DNA from: Patescibacteria group bacterium
Lineage (GTDB): Bacteria; Patescibacteriota; Patescibacteriia; Veblenbacterales; UBA10138
Reading direction: 5' to 3'
Length of the DNA: 64,000 nt
Assembly (NCBI GenBank): GCA_041648575.1
Contig: JBAZOT010000001.1
Coordinates: 31,298 to 95,297, forward strand
Shown: positions 43,784 to 52,408 of the stretch, one piece after another
How the letters are laid out: the number at the start of each line of letters is the position of its first letter
Position numbering within the stretch: the first letter of the stretch is position 1
Notes under the pieces: generated by a model
Seen by the model: only the letters and a program-made list of their open reading frames with translations
Databases searched by the model: none
Told to the model about the DNA's origin: nothing
Program-made: the position numbers and the translations under genes

Positions 43784-45574
43784 ATGCCTAATAATAACAA
43801 AACTCATCAACCAGACAACGAACAGGAATCAAACTCACCTTTAGCTTTTTTAAAGTGGATATCTTGGCCACTAGTTAAGTTGGGTAAGTTAATGTTTGGC
43901 AACATGAACCAACGCAAGCAGATGTGGTATTTGCTGGTGGGTATTTTGGCCATGTCTTTATTTACAGGTTTAATTGATTGGCCCAAAGTACCGAATTGGG
44001 TTCCGGGAACCAGTTTTTGGAATAAATTTAATGTGCAATTAGGGTTAGATTTACAGGGCGGTAGTCATCTAGTATATCAAGCAGATCTAAGTGGTATTCC
44101 CCCAGGAGAGGAGTCGTCAGCGGTAGAGGGGGTAAGGGATGTTATTGAAAGAAGGGTTAATTTTTTTGGTGTATCTGAACCAGTGGTGCAAACTAATAAG
44201 GCAGGAGATAATTGGCGAGTCATTATAGAATTACCTGGTATTAAAGATGTCAACGAAGCTATTAAGCTGATTGGTGAAACTCCAATATTGGAATTTAAAG
44301 AACAAGCCCCGGTACCAGTTCAACCAATCGATACAGAAACAGATGCGCGTGAACGTGCGGATAGCGTTTTAACAGACGCCTTAAAGCCCAAAACTGACTT
44401 TGCGGCATTGGCTAAAGAATTTTCAGAAGATGAAGGGTCACGTGAACAGGGTGGTGATTTGGGGTGGTTTAAGGCGGGTGTAATGGTACCCGAATTTGAG
44501 CAAGCTGTAATGGAATTAAAAGTAGATCAGATCAGTAAAACCTTGGTGCAAACGCAGTTTGGTTTTCATATTATCAAAAAGACTGGTGAGCGCCAGATTG
44601 CAGAAGGAGAACAAGAAGTTACAGAATACCAAGCTAGTCATATTTTGATTAAAACACCTAATGTTCAAGTTGGTGAAAACTGGCAAGCAACTGGCCTGTC
44701 TGGTAAGCAACTTAAACGCGCTCAAGTACAATTTGACAGTAGCGCTGGTTTACCAGAAGTACAGTTAGTTTTTAATGATGAAGGTAAGGATTTATTTGGC
44801 GAAATTACTGCTCGTAATGTAGGTCAACCAGTAGCTATTTTTTTAGATGGCGTACCTATTAGCGTTCCTACAGTACAGCAAGCAATAACTGGTGGAGAAG
44901 CAGTAATCACAGGAAATTTTTCCTTGACCGAAGCCAAGCAGTTGGTACAGCGCTTAAACGCTGGTGCCTTACCAGTTCCGATTCATTTAATTAATCAGCA
45001 GGTGATAGACGCAACTTTGGGTAAAGAATCTGTGGAAAAAAGTTTGTTAGCCGGCATCATTGGTTTATTGGCTGTGGCTTTGTTTATGATTATTTATTAT
45101 CGTTTGCCAGGATTTTTATCAGTATTAGCATTGTCTATTTATACTTTGATTACCTTTGCCATATTTAAATTATGGCCTATAACTTTAACCTTGCCTGGTA
45201 TCGCTGGTTATATTTTGTCTATTGGCATGGCGGTTGATGCTAATGTTTTAATTTTTGAAAGATTGAAAGAAGAGTTGCGGGCTGGCAAACCATTGCCGCA
45301 TGCGATAGAAGAGGGCTTTAAGCGCGCTTGGACTTCTATTCGCGATTCCAATATATCAAGTTTAATTACTTCTATTATTTTGATTTGGTTTGGCTCGTCC
45401 TTAATTAAGGGTTTTGCTATTACTTTGTCAATTGGTATTTTAATAAGTATGTTTTCAGCCATTACTATTACGAGGACTTTTTTGCGTTTGTTGGCCACTG
45501 GTAAATTTAATCAATTAACTTTTTTATTTGGCGTGTCTAAAAAGAAGCTGGCTGTACAGCAAAAAGTATTATGA
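43784..45574 (+). CDS. secD: Protein translocase subunit SecD with an embedded parvulin-type PPIase domain in the periplasmic region
   Basis: SecD blocks ([57 protein letters not shown]). A segment inserted between them carries GGDLGWF … FGFHIIK followed by ASHILIK (parvulin/PpiC signatures). Confidence 0.8.
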
Positions 45575-46464
45575 TAAGTTTTATTAAACATCGTTATATT
45601 TCCTATAATTTTTCGCTTACTTTGATAATTATTAGTATTGTGAGCTTATCGTTATGGGGATTAAAATTAGGAATTGATTTTACCGGCGGGTCGCTCTTGC
45701 AGGTTGAGTTTCCGTCTGGCCGTCCATCCAATCAAGAACTGCAAGAGGTTTTATCTCCTTTGAATTTTGGTAATTTATTAATACAGCCATCGGGAGATAG
45801 TGATGTCATGGTACGTTTACGTGATCTTAACGAAGACGAGCATCAGCAATTATTAGCTTCCTTAAAAGCAAAGTATAGCGATATTAGCGAAAAGAGATTT
45901 GAATCTGTCGGGCCGACTTTGGGCGCTGAACTGTGGAGAAAGGCGTTGTGGGCGATTGGCGTGGCGTTATTTTTTATTATTATTTATATTGCCTGGGCTT
46001 TCCGTAAAGTAACTCGTCCCGTGGCGTCGTGGAAATATGGTTTAACAGCAGTTATAGCGCTAGCGCACAATACTGTTATTACTGTTGGTATTTTTAGTGT
46101 ACTAGGACATTTTTGGGGAGTAGAGGTAGATAGTTTATTTGTGTCAGCGCTTTTAACACTGCTTGGTTTTTCAGTTCACGATACCATTGTAGTATATGAT
46201 CGCACGCGCGAGAATATTTTTAGGCACAGTGTTGAGAGTTTTGCCGATACTGTTAATAAAAGTCTTAATGATACTTTGGTTCGCTCTATTAATACGGGTC
46301 TAGCTACGTTGCTGGTGCTGGCGGCACTTTATTTTTTTGGCGGCGAGAGTATTCATTTTTTTGCCTTGGCACTGATTATTGGTATTGCTATTGGGACCTA
46401 TTCTTCAATTTTTGTAGCATCACCGCTGTTAGTTGATTGGTTTAAATTATCACAGCGTAAATAA
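45571..46464 (+). CDS. secF: Protein translocase subunit SecF
   Basis: [14 protein letters not shown]-terminal motif and 6 TM; overlaps the secD stop. Confidence 0.85.
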
Positions 46465-46488: not shown

Positions 46489-47181
46489 ATGGGCGAAGTA
46501 AGAAAAAAATATTTATTAATCCCGTCCATATTAGTATTCGGGCTGTTTTATTGTTTGGTAGTGCAAGCAGCGGCGACAATATTTTTAATACCTGATCAAG
46601 GCGAGTATGTGTTAAAAAGTAATTTTTCAGTTAAGGTATTGCTTAAAGCCGAAGAACCACAATCAACCCAGGTTAGTGCTAGTTTGGTTTTTGAACCAAC
46701 CAATTTACAGGTAGTTAGTTTAAATTTAAATAATTCTAAAATTAAAAAATGGCTAGTGGAACCGTCGTATTCTAATGCTAAGGGAATAATATCGTTTATA
46801 GGCATTTTAAATAATGAGAACCAAAACACGATTCAATATAATTTATTAGAGGTAACATTCAAACCTATAAAATTAGGAAAGACTTCTGTGCAAATAAATT
46901 TTGGTAAAGTGATAGATGAACAAGACTACAATACTGTGGGATCACTTGGGTCAGCAGAATTTAATATAATCGAGTCGCAGGCTAGCACTGATTCTGATAA
47001 TCAAGCGTTGAATAATAATGAAATTAAACAAGTGAATAAATCTGATATAATAGAATTTAATCAATCGTCTAGTAAGAGATTTGATTATAACGCTTTTTTG
47101 CCACTTTATGTAGCATTATTTATATTACTTTTGATAATAGTATTAGTGATTATATTTCTACAAAACAGGCCAATTAATTAA
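46489..47181 (+). CDS. Hypothetical cell-surface protein (signal peptide, beta-rich ectodomain, C-terminal TM anchor)
   Basis: Topology only. Confidence 0.35.
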   Translation: MGEVRKKYLLIPSILVFGLFYCLVVQAAATIFLIPDQGEYVLKSNFSVKVLLKAEEPQSTQVSASLVFEPTNLQVVSLNLNNSKIKKWLVEPSYSNAKGIISFIGILNNENQNTIQYNLLEVTFKPIKLGKTSVQINFGKVIDEQDYNTVGSLGSAEFNIIESQASTDSDNQALNNNEIKQVNKSDIIEFNQSSSKRFDYNAFLPLYVALFILLLIIVLVIIFLQNRPIN

Positions 47182-47240: not shown

Positions 47241-47648
47241 ATGTTTGGATTATCAACAAAAGGCGAATATGGCTTAAGTTTACTAGAAAGTTTGGCTTAT
47301 GAGCCAACTACAGTTGTTTCTCTTAAAAAAATTGCCAAAGCCAAGAAGTTACCTATAAAATATTTGGAACGTTTGGCCTCATCGCTTAAACGTGCTGGCT
47401 TAATTAAAAGTAAGGAGGGCGCTAAGGGTGGTTATTATTTAGCCAAACCAATAGCCCAAATAAAATTAATTGATGTGATCAAAATTTTAGAGGGAGATTT
47501 AGCACCAACTATTTGTACAGGCGATCATCTAAAATGCCCTAGGCAGGATACTTGCACTATGAAACAAGGTTGGCTAGGGGTACGTAATAAAATTTATTTT
47601 ATTTTATCAAGCTATACTTTAGCAGATTTATTTAAGAATAATAATTAA
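47241..47648 (+). CDS. Rrf2-family transcriptional regulator (IscR/SufR-like, Cys cluster ligands)
   Basis: N-terminal Rrf2 wHTH (KGEYGLSLLESLA…) and CxxxxxC…C (CTGDHLKCPRQDTC); heads the suf operon. Confidence 0.7.
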   Translation: MFGLSTKGEYGLSLLESLAYEPTTVVSLKKIAKAKKLPIKYLERLASSLKRAGLIKSKEGAKGGYYLAKPIAQIKLIDVIKILEGDLAPTICTGDHLKCPRQDTCTMKQGWLGVRNKIYFILSSYTLADLFKNNN

Positions 47649-47659
47649 CAAATAAAAAT

Positions 47660-48271
47660 ATGTTTACTTTACTTAAATTACCATATGCTTATGATGCTCT
47701 AGAACCCTATTTTGATAAACAGACAATGGAATTGCACCATTCTAAACACCACGCTACCTATGTGACTAAACTTAACGAGGCTTTAGCTAATGCACCAGAG
47801 CTCTATACTAAATCTATAGAAGAATTGCTGGTTAATTTAAATGTTGTACCAGAGAATATACGAACCGTGGTTACTAATCACGGCGGTGGACATTATAATC
47901 ACTTATTTTTTTGGAGTATTATCCAGCCGCCAATAGGCAATGGTGGAGAACCGGAAGGCGAATTAGCCAGTGCTGTGGATCGTGATTTTGGTGACGTTAC
48001 AAAATTTCGTGATGATTTTACCAAAGCTGCAGTGAGTATTTTTGGCAGCGGTTGGGCATGGTTGGTAGCTAATCGGGATAATAAACTTTCTATTATTACT
48101 ACTGCTAATCAGGACAGTCCCATTACCCAGGGTTTAAAACCTCTATTAACAATAGATGTTTGGGAACACGCTTATTATTTAAAATATCAAAACAAGCGAG
48201 CTGATTATATTGATGCCTGGTGGAAAATAGTTAATTGGCAGGAAGTTAGTCGGAAGTTTGCTAAAAAATAA
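47660..48271 (+). CDS. sodA: Fe/Mn superoxide dismutase
   Basis: LPYAYDALEPY…HHSKHH and DVWEHAYY metal-ligand motifs. Confidence 0.9.
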   Translation: MFTLLKLPYAYDALEPYFDKQTMELHHSKHHATYVTKLNEALANAPELYTKSIEELLVNLNVVPENIRTVVTNHGGGHYNHLFFWSIIQPPIGNGGEPEGELASAVDRDFGDVTKFRDDFTKAAVSIFGSGWAWLVANRDNKLSIITTANQDSPITQGLKPLLTIDVWEHAYYLKYQNKRADYIDAWWKIVNWQEVSRKFAKK

Positions 48272-48273
48272 AT

Positions 48274-49020
48274 ATGTCCAAGTTGCTACAAATAAAAAAA
48301 CTTTGCATTAGCGTTGGTAGTAACGCCATCATTGATATTTCAGATTTAGCTATAAATCTTGGTGAAATTCACGCGCTGATGGGACCAAATGGTTCTGGTA
48401 AGTCAACTTTGGCACAAGTGATAGCGGGAAATCCATCATATACTATCAAACAAGGAGCAATTTATTTTTTAGGTAAAAAAATAAATCAGTGGTCGCCTGA
48501 AGAAAGAGCGCGAGCGGGAATATTTTTAGCTTGGCAACATCCCCACAGTATCGCTGGTTTGGCAGTAAGGGATTTTTTACGCACTATTTATAATAATTTA
48601 TTGAGTGTTAAAAATAAAAAAATATTGTCAGTTACGGATTTTAATAAATTATTACTTGATCAAGCATCGAGTTTGGATTTGCCAGTAGAATTATTAGAGC
48701 GTCCGGTAAATGAAGATTTTTCAGGAGGAGAAAAAAAGAAATTAGAAATCTTACAACTGTTATTACTTAAACCAAAATTGGCAATTATAGATGAAATTGA
48801 TTCGGGTTTAGATATAGACGCATTAAAGGTTATTGCCAGAGTTATTGGCAAGCGGAAAAATATGGGTATTTTAGTCATTACTCATTATCAGAGAATTTTA
48901 AAATATTTAAAACCAGACTATGTACACGTTTCCATTAATGGAAAAATTGTAAAAAAAGGGAAAGCAGAATTGGCAAATCAGATAGAGCGGCTTGGTTATA
49001 AATTTTTAAATTTTAAATAA
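48274..49020 (+). CDS. sufC: Fe-S cluster assembly ATPase SufC
   Basis: Walker A GPNGSGKST, ABC signature FSGGEKKK, Walker B LAIIDEIDSGLD. Confidence 0.85.
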   Translation: MSKLLQIKKLCISVGSNAIIDISDLAINLGEIHALMGPNGSGKSTLAQVIAGNPSYTIKQGAIYFLGKKINQWSPEERARAGIFLAWQHPHSIAGLAVRDFLRTIYNNLLSVKNKKILSVTDFNKLLLDQASSLDLPVELLERPVNEDFSGGEKKKLEILQLLLLKPKLAIIDEIDSGLDIDALKVIARVIGKRKNMGILVITHYQRILKYLKPDYVHVSINGKIVKKGKAELANQIERLGYKFLNFK

Positions 49021-49024
49021 ACTA

Positions 49025-50422
49025 ATGAATCGTCATCAGTTGTCAACAACAAAATATGCTTATGGTTTTCATGATAATTTAAAGCCGGTCTATTCTATAC
49101 CTCGTGGCTTGTCAGCTGCTGTAGTTGCTGAATTATCCAGTATCAAATCAGAACCTCAGTGGCTCAAAAAAATACGTCATCATTCCTTGAAAATTTTTGA
49201 ACAAAAAAAATTGCCCAATTGGGGAGGTGATTTAAGTAAATTGGATTTTAGTAAAATTCAATATTATATTAAACCAACAGAGCGTCAAGTAAGCAGTTGG
49301 CAGCAAGTGCCTAAAGTCATAAAAAATACTTTCGATCGACTTGGTGTTCCGCAGGCCGAACGAAGATTTTTAGCCGGTGCTGGTGCACAATATGAATCCG
49401 AAATGATTTATCACCATTTGCAGGAGGCATGGCTTAAAAAAGGAGTTATTTTTTCTGATTTAGAAACAGCTATCAAGAAATATCCAGATTTAGTAAAAAA
49501 ATATTTTGGCAGTGTGGTACCAGCTGGTGATAATAAATTTGCCGCACTTAATTCAGCTGTTTGGTCTGGTGGTAGTTTTGTCTATGTGCCAAAAAATGTT
49601 CAGGTTACAATTCCCTTGCAAGCATATTTTCGGCTTAATTCTCAAAATATGGGACAATTTGAACGAACTTTAATTATTGCTGATGAGGGAAGTTTTGTTC
49701 ATTATATTGAGGGTTGTACAGCGCCAATTTATGCAGTTGATTCATTACACGCCGCAGTGGTAGAAGTGATTGCACATAAGTATTCACGCATTCGTTATAC
49801 CACCCTGCAGAATTGGTCAGCTAATGTTTATAATTTGGTAACCAAGCGTGCGGTAGCACACGAAGGTGCCATAATTGAATGGGTGGATGGAAATTTTGGC
49901 AGCAAATTAACTATGAAATATCCGGCTGTAATTTTAAAGGGTAGGGGTGCGCACGCTAATATTTTATCCATGGCTATAGCTAGGCGCAGCCAGCATCAAG
50001 ATGTCGGAGCTAAAGTTATTCATATGGCGCCCGATACCAGCTCGCAAATAGTTTCTAAATCAGTAAGTAGTGGGGGTGGTAGATGCAGTTATCGCGGATT
50101 GGTTAAAGTTAATAAAGGTGCCACTAAAGTAAAATCTAAGGTACAATGTGACGCTTTGTTATTGGATAAACATTCTCGATCAGACACTTATCCTAAAATG
50201 CAAGTTTATGAACACGATTGTCAAATAGAACATGAAACCACAGTTTCCAAAATAGGCGATGAGCAATTATTTTATTTAAAAAGCCGCGGTTTAAGTGAAA
50301 TAGAAGCTATATCTTTAATCGTCGGTGGATTTATTGAGCCAGTAGCCAAAGAATTGCCTATGGAATATGCTGTGGAATTAAATCGTTTAATTAATCTGGA
50401 AATGGAAAATTCAATTGCCTAA
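49025..50422 (+). CDS. sufB: Fe-S cluster assembly protein SufB
   Basis: 465 aa SufB/SufD-fold protein with conserved SufB C-terminal blocks; follows sufC. Confidence 0.8.
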   Translation: MNRHQLSTTKYAYGFHDNLKPVYSIPRGLSAAVVAELSSIKSEPQWLKKIRHHSLKIFEQKKLPNWGGDLSKLDFSKIQYYIKPTERQVSSWQQVPKVIKNTFDRLGVPQAERRFLAGAGAQYESEMIYHHLQEAWLKKGVIFSDLETAIKKYPDLVKKYFGSVVPAGDNKFAALNSAVWSGGSFVYVPKNVQVTIPLQAYFRLNSQNMGQFERTLIIADEGSFVHYIEGCTAPIYAVDSLHAAVVEVIAHKYSRIRYTTLQNWSANVYNLVTKRAVAHEGAIIEWVDGNFGSKLTMKYPAVILKGRGAHANILSMAIARRSQHQDVGAKVIHMAPDTSSQIVSKSVSSGGGRCSYRGLVKVNKGATKVKSKVQCDALLLDKHSRSDTYPKMQVYEHDCQIEHETTVSKIGDEQLFYLKSRGLSEIEAISLIVGGFIEPVAKELPMEYAVELNRLINLEMENSIA

Positions 50423-50424
50423 TT

Positions 50425-51195
50425 ATGCAAGCTAAATCTGGAAAATTTGAAATTTTACCAAACAGGCTGCGGCGAGGTGTATTTGATCTAAATTTTCCTC
50501 ACCAACTAAACAGCAATTGTCTAATACATCTTGATAAATCTATTAAGAAAGATTTACAATTAAATTTTTCATTAAACTCTGGCGCAACAGTTAGGTTAAT
50601 TATTTACGGCAATCCTGAAAATATTAACTGCAGTGTTAATATTAAACAAGCAGCAGGTAGCCAGCTTATTTTTTATTCCATAATTGCAGGGACAAAGAAA
50701 ATTATTAATAAATTAAACGTAGATTTAAACCAGCGGGCAGCTAGATTTGATGGTAAAATATTTTATTTTGGCACAGCTAATGATTTGCAGGAGCAAGTTA
50801 CCAAAGTTGAGCATCGGGCACCAGCCACTTTTGCTAGGGTTAGTCATAAGCGAGTGCAGATTGATAAGTCGCAAACAATAAATTATGGTATGATTAAAGT
50901 TGATAAAAAGGCGGATAAGACCGATACTCTTTTATCAGATAGAACATTACTTTTAGGGAAAAACAGTTCAGCCGAATTTGTGCCTTCATTGGAAATATTA
51001 ACAAGTAACGTTAAAGCATCGCACCAGGCCAGCTGCGGTCAAATATCAAATCAAGATATATTTTATTTACAGTCCCGCGGATTAAGCATATCCCAGGCAC
51101 AAAAACTAATTATTAGTGGATTTATTAAAGAAATTTTACCATCCAGCGGCAGAATAACTAATTGGTTAAGTAAAAAGACAAATAATTATGTTTAA
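50425..51195 (+). CDS. sufD: Fe-S cluster assembly protein SufD (short)
   Basis: SufB/D beta-helix family paralog (…QDIFYLQSRGLS…QKLIISGF) in the sufB-sufS interval. Confidence 0.6.
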   Translation: MQAKSGKFEILPNRLRRGVFDLNFPHQLNSNCLIHLDKSIKKDLQLNFSLNSGATVRLIIYGNPENINCSVNIKQAAGSQLIFYSIIAGTKKIINKLNVDLNQRAARFDGKIFYFGTANDLQEQVTKVEHRAPATFARVSHKRVQIDKSQTINYGMIKVDKKADKTDTLLSDRTLLLGKNSSAEFVPSLEILTSNVKASHQASCGQISNQDIFYLQSRGLSISQAQKLIISGFIKEILPSSGRITNWLSKKTNNYV

Positions 51196-52408
51196 TGTTA
51201 ATATCATTAGAAATCAGTTCCCATTTTTTAAACAGAAAAAAAATAATAAAAATTGGGCATTCTTAGATAATGCGGCGTCTTCGCAAAAACCTGAAATCGT
51301 GTTACGCGCGATGGATGAATTTTATCGAACCACCTATGCTAATATTCATCGCGGTATTTATGACATAGCAGAAGTAGCTACGACGAAATTTGAACAAGCG
51401 CGCGATATGGTAGCTAAATTTATTAATGCTCCGAGTTCCGATAATATTATTTTTACCAAGAACGCGACTGAAGCAATTAATTTGGTTGCTTATACTTTAG
51501 GTACAACATTCAAGCCTAATGAGGAAATATTGCTAAGTGAAATGGAGCATCATGCAAATTTAATACCTTGGCAGCAAGTGGCACGGCGCATGGGCGCTAA
51601 ATTACGTTTCATTCCTGTTACTCAAGATTATCGATTAGATTTAGCCAAGCTTGATGAACTTCTTAATAATAAAACTCGTTTAGTAAGTATTGTTGCCATG
51701 TCTAATACTTTGGGAACTATTAATGATATAAAATATATCATTGATAAGGCTCGAAAATTGGGTGCACTGGTCTTGGTTGACGGTGCGCAAGCGGTGGTTC
51801 ATAATCCGATAAATGTTCAGCAACTTGATTGTGACTTTTTAGTTTTTTCAAGTCACAAAATTTATGGTCCATCTGGTATTGGTGCGCTTTATGGAAAAAA
51901 AGAAATACTTGAATCATTGCCGCCATTTTTAACCGGCGGACACATGATTGCTGATGTGGGGTGGAATAATGCTACATGGAGTGAGGTGCCAGGAAAATTT
52001 GAAGCAGGTACGCCGCCTATTACTGAAGCTATTGGTTTTGCAGAGGCAATCAGGTTTATTCAAGAAATTGGTTGGACCGCGATTGAAAATTATGAACAAG
52101 AATTAACTAATTATGCTTTAGAACAATTAAAAATGATTAATGGTTTGCAATTATTTGGTCCGGCAGATAACCATGATCGTGGTGCATTATTTTCTTTTAC
52201 TTTAAACAAGTTTCATGCGCACGACATCGCAGGTGTATTAAATGAATTAGGTATAGCAGTTAGAGCGGGGCATCATTGTACCGCGCCGTTGCATAAAAAA
52301 TTTGGATTAATTGCCACCACCAGAGCCAGTTGTGCAATTTATAATACTAAAGAAGATATCGATAGGCTAGTTGATGGAATTAAACAAGTCCAAAAAATAC
52401 TAACGTAA
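51188..52408 (+). CDS. sufS: Cysteine desulfurase SufS (class V aminotransferase, group II)
   Basis: PLP-lysine SSHKIYGP and active-site loop RAGHHCTAP. Confidence 0.85.
   Translation: MFNVNIIRNQFPFFKQKKNNKNWAFLDNAASSQKPEIVLRAMDEFYRTTYANIHRGIYDIAEVATTKFEQARDMVAKFINAPSSDNIIFTKNATEAINLVAYTLGTTFKPNEEILLSEMEHHANLIPWQQVARRMGAKLRFIPVTQDYRLDLAKLDELLNNKTRLVSIVAMSNTLGTINDIKYIIDKARKLGALVLVDGAQAVVHNPINVQQLDCDFLVFSSHKIYGPSGIGALYGKKEILESLPPFLTGGHMIADVGWNNATWSEVPGKFEAGTPPITEAIGFAEAIRFIQEIGWTAIENYEQELTNYALEQLKMINGLQLFGPADNHDRGALFSFTLNKFHAHDIAGVLNELGIAVRAGHHCTAPLHKKFGLIATTRASCAIYNTKEDIDRLVDGIKQVQKILT

Follow-up and report, generated by a model that had tools for sequence, protein, structure and literature searches.

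In SecDF, the head of the extracytoplasmic P1 domain binds unfolded preprotein at the exit of SecYEG and swings between the F and I forms about a hinge between base and head, a movement powered by the flow of protons through the membrane domain. The closest described proteins, the SecDFs of Thermus thermophilus (PDB 3AQP and 5YHF) and Deinococcus radiodurans (PDB 5XAN), are motors driven by the proton-motive force with a mobile P1 head. The present analysis concerns a secD gene in a 64,000-nucleotide stretch of DNA, called the window here, from a Patescibacteria group bacterium (GenBank assembly GCA_041648575.1, contig JBAZOT010000001.1, positions 31,298 to 95,297 of the forward strand). Where Thermus SecDF has a linker of 43 amino acids (aa), the SecD of the window has a segment of 132 aa that holds a whole parvulin, and in contrast to the Thermus protein its SecD and SecF are separate polypeptides. 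In the reading that is considered highly probable, the P1 domain of this SecD carries a single inserted, circularly permuted parvulin, whose β1 strand, turned back against β4, contributes the second histidine of the active site, and which would act as a tethered foldase.

Parvulins that work near the translocon have been described in several other arrangements. PrsA of Bacillus and other Firmicutes is a separate, membrane-anchored lipoprotein foldase, with a canonical parvulin placed inside an N/C chaperone domain, whereas the parvulin in the window is hosted by SecD, lacks an N/C domain and has a permuted strand order. The parvulin domains of E. coli SurA were placed on the SecDF P1 head in all AlphaFold models (PMC9987972), and PpiD-YfgM is reported to associate with SecYEG (PMC9643414). 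SurA and PpiD-YfgM dock non-covalently and transiently and have canonical parvulins; in the window, the link is covalent and chaperone modules are absent. In Mycoplasma pneumoniae, the parvulin lipoprotein Mpn444 crosslinks to SecD (bioRxiv 10.1101/2024.09.05.611430). Mpn444 and Mpn436 resemble the present case in that a reduced-genome bacterium has a parvulin-type peptidyl-prolyl isomerase (PPIase) beside SecD at the translocon exit; unlike it, they are separate, trimeric surface lipoproteins with a propeller and a chaperone-like domain, and no fusion is involved. The models of SurA on the P1 head and the crosslink of Mpn444 thus provide independent support for a partnership between parvulins and SecD.

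The secD gene is one unbroken reading frame in the list of open reading frames (ORFs) of the window, and secF adjoins it. The structure of full-length SecD was predicted with AlphaFold2 (AF2) together with 116 homologs, over which the conservation counts given below were also taken; secondary structure was read from DSSP strings, and local confidence is given as the predicted local distance difference test (pLDDT). The two genes and the parts of SecD are the following, all on the forward strand.

43784..45574 (+): secD, 596 aa, with the stop codon counted in
44126..44305 (+): N-terminal part of the P1 base (SecD_1st, residues 115-174), Pfam PF21760 with E 1.3e-16, ending in the conserved strand PILEFKEQ (AF2 strand 169-174)
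44306..44335 (+): N-terminal linker of the insert (residues 175-184), predicted by AF2 as coil with no strand
44336..44605 (+): parvulin core α1-α2-α3-β2-α4-β3-β4 (residues 185-274), containing SED (D216), GGDLGWF (β2), M234 and F238, T257 and FGFHIIK (H262)
44612..44653 (+): relocated β1 strand (residues 277-290, with H286), joined to β4 by a tight turn; assigned from AF2, the de-permuted profile match, conservation and alignment with β1 of SurA P2
44654..44680 (+): C-terminal linker of the insert (residues 291-299, TPNVQVGEN), with an AF2 block mean pLDDT of 62, falling under 50 at 294-296, variable among homologs
44681..44977 (+): P1 head (residues 300-398), Pfam PF22599 with E 4.8e-29 over profile positions 19-114 of 114; from residue 305 on, the sequence aligns with Thermus SecDF from 160 on
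44984..45493 (+): SecD membrane domain (residues 401-570, Pfam SecD_SecF_C), with D485
45571..46464 (+): secF, 297 aa, overlapping the secD stop by four bases (ATGA); from the ORF list and TIGR00966

The SecD model of NCBIfam (TIGR01129) is matched over residues 86-567 with 399 bits, against a cut-off of 244.4, and the SecF model (TIGR00966) with 293.9 bits, against a cut-off of 160. The Pfam domains of SecD follow in the order SecD_1st (115-174), Rotamase_3/Rotamase (181/183-267), SecDF_P1_head (303-398) and SecD_SecF_C (401-570). The topology is that of SecD as well, with an N-terminal transmembrane helix, a large extracytoplasmic P1 composed of base and head, and a five-helix bundle like that of the resistance-nodulation-division (RND) family. 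The aspartate of the proton path, D485 in AVD485AN, aligns with D340 of Thermus SecDF (AVD340GN) and is invariant in the 116 homologs. Every feature of SecD that is open to computation is therefore present, from the match to the curated model and the fold to the proton-path Asp and the adjoining secF. As judged from its sequence, the host protein is thus SecD of a proton-driven SecDF export motor in a bacterium of the Patescibacteria, or Candidate Phyla Radiation (CPR). At its N-terminus, residues 1-45 (window 43784..43920) provide an extension of about 40 residues ahead of the first transmembrane helix, with an AF2 helix at 19-38 and pLDDT of 48-59 across the first 20 residues. Because many homologs, at 545-560 aa, begin close to the position of M41 or M47, translation of secD may actually start farther downstream.

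An initial annotation of this DNA, made by a model from the sequence alone, had claimed that a parvulin insert of about 130 aa lies between the conserved periplasmic blocks of SecD, that the insert contains the parvulin motifs in reversed order, and that a Pfam scan, a structure prediction and a survey of SecD orthologs could be used to check this. The quoted motifs were all found within the 596-aa protein and in the quoted order: ILEFKEQ at residues 168-174, GGDLGWF at 223-229, FGFHIIK at 259-265, ASHILIK at 284-290 and a 14-residue conserved block at 297-310. Window positions 44290-44690 correspond to SecD residues 170-303, approximately, and hence to the insert. On alignment with Thermus SecDF, residues 82-172 pair with 31-116 and residues 305-571 with 160-426. 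The size of about 130 aa holds for the 132 residues (173-304) between the aligned blocks, but not as a gain in length, since the 43 residues present there in Thermus leave a net gain of only about 89 residues, plus a replaced linker. The parvulin sits at the junction of P1 base and P1 head, after the strand that closes the N-terminal half of the base; this strand, which ends in LEFKEQ, is a universal SecD P1-base strand and is aligned to LEFR of Thermus.

The Pfam scan gave the expected result, with Rotamase_3 (PF13616) matched at E 1.7e-26 and 93.5 bits, against a cut-off of 22.5, and Rotamase (PF00639) at E 3.3e-23 and 82.9 bits, against a cut-off of 21.7; SecD_1st and SecDF_P1_head flank both, so that the claimed position of the insert is borne out. 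A parvulin match of this strength far exceeds what chance would give. By sequence, the insert is matched best by the P2 domain of SurA (E 1e-24). The NCBIfam models of PrsA, SurA and PpiD match the parvulin part only and lie far under their cut-offs (71.7 against 361 for PrsA and 66.6 against 394 for SurA). To judge from domain content, the insert is not a chaperone of the PrsA, SurA or PpiD type, as it has no helical N/C module and is bordered on both sides by SecD P1. The domain passes the sequence thresholds for a parvulin, is predicted to have the fold of four-stranded antiparallel sheet and four helices, and has the active-site residues; it departs from the family in strand order.

The canonical order of parvulins is β1-α1-α2-α3-β2-α4-β3-β4, and β1 bears the first active-site His. 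In the window SecD, the order is α1-α2-α3-β2-α4-β3-β4-β1, and the β1-like ASHILIK comes after the FGFHIIK of β4. Accordingly, the Pfam matches begin at profile position 13 of 97 in PF00639 (extending to 96) and 29 of 116 in PF13616, and β1 is missing at the N-terminus. When the trailing segment was cut in silico, set ahead of α1 and rescored on the profiles, the match to PF00639 covered positions 1-96 of 97 and rose from 86.9 to 93.7 bits; that to PF13616 rose from 98.4 to 105.6 bits, and its profile start moved from 31 to 13.

The AF2 model, with a mean pLDDT of 85.3 and 10-residue block means of 90-97 over residues 190-290, forms a parvulin fold. Its elements are helices at 185-200, 206-213, 217-220 and 236-244 and strands at 225-230, 255-257, 260-274 and 277-290. 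Only two residues separate β4 (260-274) from the trailing strand (277-290), and in the model the two form a hairpin. Ahead of α1, residues 175-184 are coil and contain no strand. This linker is proline-rich and differs among homologs in length and sequence. Since pLDDT falls below 50 at 179-181 as well as at 294-296, the parvulin appears to be flanked by two flexible tethers. Since the six-residue β2 (225-230) must pair with another strand and no long edge other than that of the trailing strand is free, the two would lie side by side and give the canonical 2-1-4-3 order of the sheet.

Conservation points in the same direction. H262 and T/S257 are kept in all 116 homologs, as is F238; H286 is kept in 113 and D216 in 104. 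In the trailing strand, H286 is followed by I287 (114/116) and L288 (115/116). H286, D216, T257 and H262 are taken here to be the equivalents of Pin1 H59, C113 (an Asp in many parvulins, such as D74 of Par14), T152 and H157, respectively. A full active site is obtained only if the trailing strand belongs to the domain. The proline-pocket residues L226, M/F234 and F238 are likewise strongly conserved in the single-unit family, and the catalytic residues are, by these counts, under selection. On the grounds of the truncated Pfam match, the gain upon de-permutation, the predicted hairpin and the conserved active-site residues, the domain is regarded as a true circular permutant, a homolog of the parvulins with non-canonical topology; the reversed strand order had been tentatively read in this way in the initial annotation, and the missing profile positions 1-12, restored by de-permutation, agree with it.

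The fusion is not peculiar to this contig. All 120 of the best database homologs, which are 58-100% identical and lie on separate contigs, carry both the Rotamase and the SecD Pfam domains. Those with names are all annotated merely as 'protein translocase subunit SecD'. Where a source is named, it is Patescibacteria group, Veblenbacteria, Kerfeldbacteria or Parcubacteria, and all homologs with a reliable label belong to Patescibacteria. Among 1.84 billion cluster representatives (50% identity), a profile built from the insert and the adjacent SecD sequence found 903 proteins at E ≤ 1e-30. Among the best 150 of these 903, local hidden Markov models distinguished 49 SecD-parvulin fusions and 101 non-SecD proteins with 2-6 tandem parvulin units. 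The latter (e.g. P0125, P0137, P0151 and P0185) reach about 1040 aa and are much more repetitive than SurA. One protein of 905 aa (P0140) has a single parvulin insert and two matches to the profile of the SecD C-terminal membrane domain, which suggests a fused SecDF, so that the insert would occur in split and fused formats alike.

Among the matches listed in species-representative genomes, the junction was seen in Buchanan-, Komeili-, Uhr-, Falkow- and Magasanikbacteria and in Parcubacteria; the best match listed in that scan is only 55% identical to the window SecD, and the scan samples the distribution rather than measuring it. Judged by these homologs, the fusion is a family trait of many CPR lineages and common in these bacteria. 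Some contigs with CPR-type SecD-parvulin genes bear the label 'uncultured Gammaproteobacteria' (L010, L011, L018-L020 and L025) or Lysobacteraceae (L003), which likely reflects mis-binning or mislabelling in public metagenome-assembled genomes (MAGs); Binatia is another non-CPR label. The label Lysobacteraceae on L003 (JAACEG010000012.1) was judged not credible at a GC content of 29.7%, and L026, from a Gemmatimonadaceae MAG, was rejected as a SecD fusion because its protein is SurA-like. L009 and L018, with 62-64% GC, contain genuine SecD genes of the two-unit kind described below, and their taxon labels are unconfirmed. Neither occurrence of the fusion outside Patescibacteria nor its strict confinement to them is claimed.

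About one third of the SecD fusions among the representatives have two parvulin cores at the same insertion site, in the linear order core 1, 'ASHILI' strand, core 2, trailing strand. Examples are P0057, P0064, P0071 and P0106 (685-691 aa) and the genes at L009 2056..4209 (717 aa) and L018 779..2908 (709 aa). In the AF2 model of P0057, unbroken strand runs at 250-272 and 358-381 would correspond to two permuted domains in tandem. The active-site His is present in the middle strand in 23 of 24 two-unit proteins and in β4 of core 2 in all 24; it is found in β4 of core 1 in none and in the trailing strand in 3, where Arg occurs in 12. This pattern would fit a canonical active second unit nested in the hairpin of a degenerate, permuted first unit. 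The two-unit proteins also have a conserved Cys-x6-Cys in a 13-residue coil after the middle strand (consensus 'ASHILICYxGAxxC'; P0057 270-285) with pLDDT of about 89-90. The pair may form an extracytoplasmic disulfide and is absent from the window SecD.

Circular permutation can arise by duplication and trimming of tandem domains, as in the saposins and swaposins and in DNA methyltransferases. The insert is collinear with SurA P1 (minus β1), the inter-domain linker and β1 of P2, and tandem-parvulin proteins are abundant among its nearest sequence relatives. For these two reasons, the permutation probably came from the capture or trimming of a tandem-parvulin stretch, offset by one strand. The insert resembles the known route in that it reads as a tandem-parvulin array one strand out of register. 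In the SurA-like protein of L026 (2353..3687, 444 aa), one full parvulin is followed by a lone β1-like strand, 'VRARHILI', and then by non-parvulin sequence; this is the same pattern of a core plus an extra β1 as in the SecD insert, though outside SecD.

Other explanations of the strand order were weighed as well. The initial annotation had offered partial duplication as an alternative to permutation, but the window protein has one core, and the idea is relevant to its origin only. An ordinary parvulin could be present whose N-terminal β1 has diverged beyond detection, with ASHILIK as the leftover first strand of a lost second parvulin and devoid of any structural role. The collinearity of the insert with a tandem array that runs from SurA P1 into β1 of P2 fits such a history, and the existence of two-unit relatives makes a vestigial strand conceivable. 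The place where a divergent β1 would have to lie is, however, the proline-rich, variable and poorly predicted coil of residues 175-184, and the strand that precedes it already belongs to the P1 base of SecD in general. Moreover, the trailing strand is among the best-kept parts of the insert, its hairpin with β4 is predicted at pLDDT above 90, and the sheet of a parvulin could not fold if its central strand were missing. The leftover-strand history is thus very unlikely. Still more improbable, to the point of being negligible, is an assembly or gene-calling artefact in which a fragment of a parvulin gene was joined into secD. Only the probable origin of the window in a MAG raises this possibility, and no evidence in its favor was found; the reading frame is continuous, and the architecture recurs on separate contigs in no fewer than 120 different proteins at 58-81% identity, as well as in numerous species-representative genomes.

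A different objection accepts the parvulin as intact and takes it to be catalytically unimportant: in the manner of the inactive parvulins in PpiD and SurA P1, it would be a holdase, a docking module or simply a spacer by which P1 is made larger. Inactive or dispensable parvulins of Sec chaperones are indeed among the structure matches (PpiD 2kgj and 8zht; SurA P1 2pv1), the first unit of the two-unit relatives is retained in all 24 despite its lack of the β4 His, and P1 tolerates variation in size, with E. coli SecD aligning only from query residue 359 onward. Against this, all four positions of the catalytic tetrad are strongly conserved together with the residues of the proline pocket, which would be needless for a mere spacer, and a non-catalytic domain is considered unlikely. 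Several points weigh against a permuted, catalytically active parvulin as set out above. The score gain of about 7 bits upon de-permutation is modest. That the trailing strand lies between β4 and β2, and how His262 and His286 are arranged, is deduced from DSSP strings. A covariation of E228 in β2 with R285 in the trailing strand (10/10), which emerged from a mutual-information scan of the trailing strand against the core and is not used as primary evidence, comes from one clade and may be phylogenetic. In the two-unit relatives, AF2 and conservation disagree on the core to which each β1-like strand belongs, so that strand assignment is not trivial. The predicted template modelling (pTM) score is only 0.62, so that the modelled position of the parvulin against head and base of P1 is tentative. 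Finally, some parvulin domains with good sequences are catalytically weak or silent (SurA P1, PpiD), and in the present case PPIase activity is a prediction.

Taken with its conserved tetrad, the permuted parvulin at the base-head junction suggests the following mechanism. The P1 head would capture secretory proteins as they emerge from SecYEG and swing with the flow of protons, and the tethered parvulin would bind the emerging chains and is predicted to catalyze isomerization of Xaa-Pro bonds, filling the role that a separate PrsA, PpiD or SurA has elsewhere. Because of this location and of the selection on the catalytic residues, the most likely function, by analogy with these systems, is that of a translocon-tethered prolyl isomerase/foldase or holdase for emerging secretory proteins; a foldase at the translocon exit similar to PrsA or PpiD, as proposed at the outset from the sequence, is plausible. 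A more elaborate proposal is a 'pull-and-fold' machine, in which the parvulin rides on the base-head hinge and each proton-driven swing hands the unfolded chain to the isomerase, replacing free PrsA, PpiD or SurA in CPR bacteria, and in which the permutation was favored by selection for shifting the termini to the other end of the sheet and thereby turning the active site toward the substrate groove of the head. This proposal is speculative and, as a whole, rather doubtful.

The genes around secDF are ordinary housekeeping genes, with an ABC exporter upstream. Directly after secF, an ORF of 230 aa (46489..47181, forward strand) has a hydrophobic segment at its N-terminal and at its C-terminal end; it gave no Pfam match at E ≤ 1e-5 and may encode a surface-anchored protein co-transcribed with secDF. 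Farther along (47241..52408, forward strand) lie a Rrf2-family regulator, a 203-aa ORF, an ABC ATPase (SufC-like), a SufB/D-core protein, a 256-aa ORF and a class-V aminotransferase (SufS-like), which is an ordinary Fe-S cluster assembly cluster. A second parvulin gene was not found within the 64-kb window.

The searchable literature, which leaves out most papers in subscription journals, yielded no account of either a SecD-parvulin fusion or a permuted parvulin. Both thus apparently are undescribed, though not categorically new, and the co-occurrence of SecD and Rotamase domains is already visible in precomputed Pfam annotations. The domain appears to be the first natural circularly permuted parvulin of which any trace was found, and it offers a clean case of permutation accompanying domain insertion. 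The handover of preproteins from SecDF to extracytoplasmic folding factors is known mainly from transient, low-resolution interactions such as those of SurA with the holo-translocon, of PpiD-YfgM and of Mpn444 with SecD. A natural covalent fusion of parvulin and P1 provides 'Rosetta-stone' evidence for the joint action of both activities, as well as a compact single-polypeptide system for structural and biochemical study. For the CPR bacteria themselves, it adds to the picture of organisms with reduced genomes that economize on envelope proteostasis.

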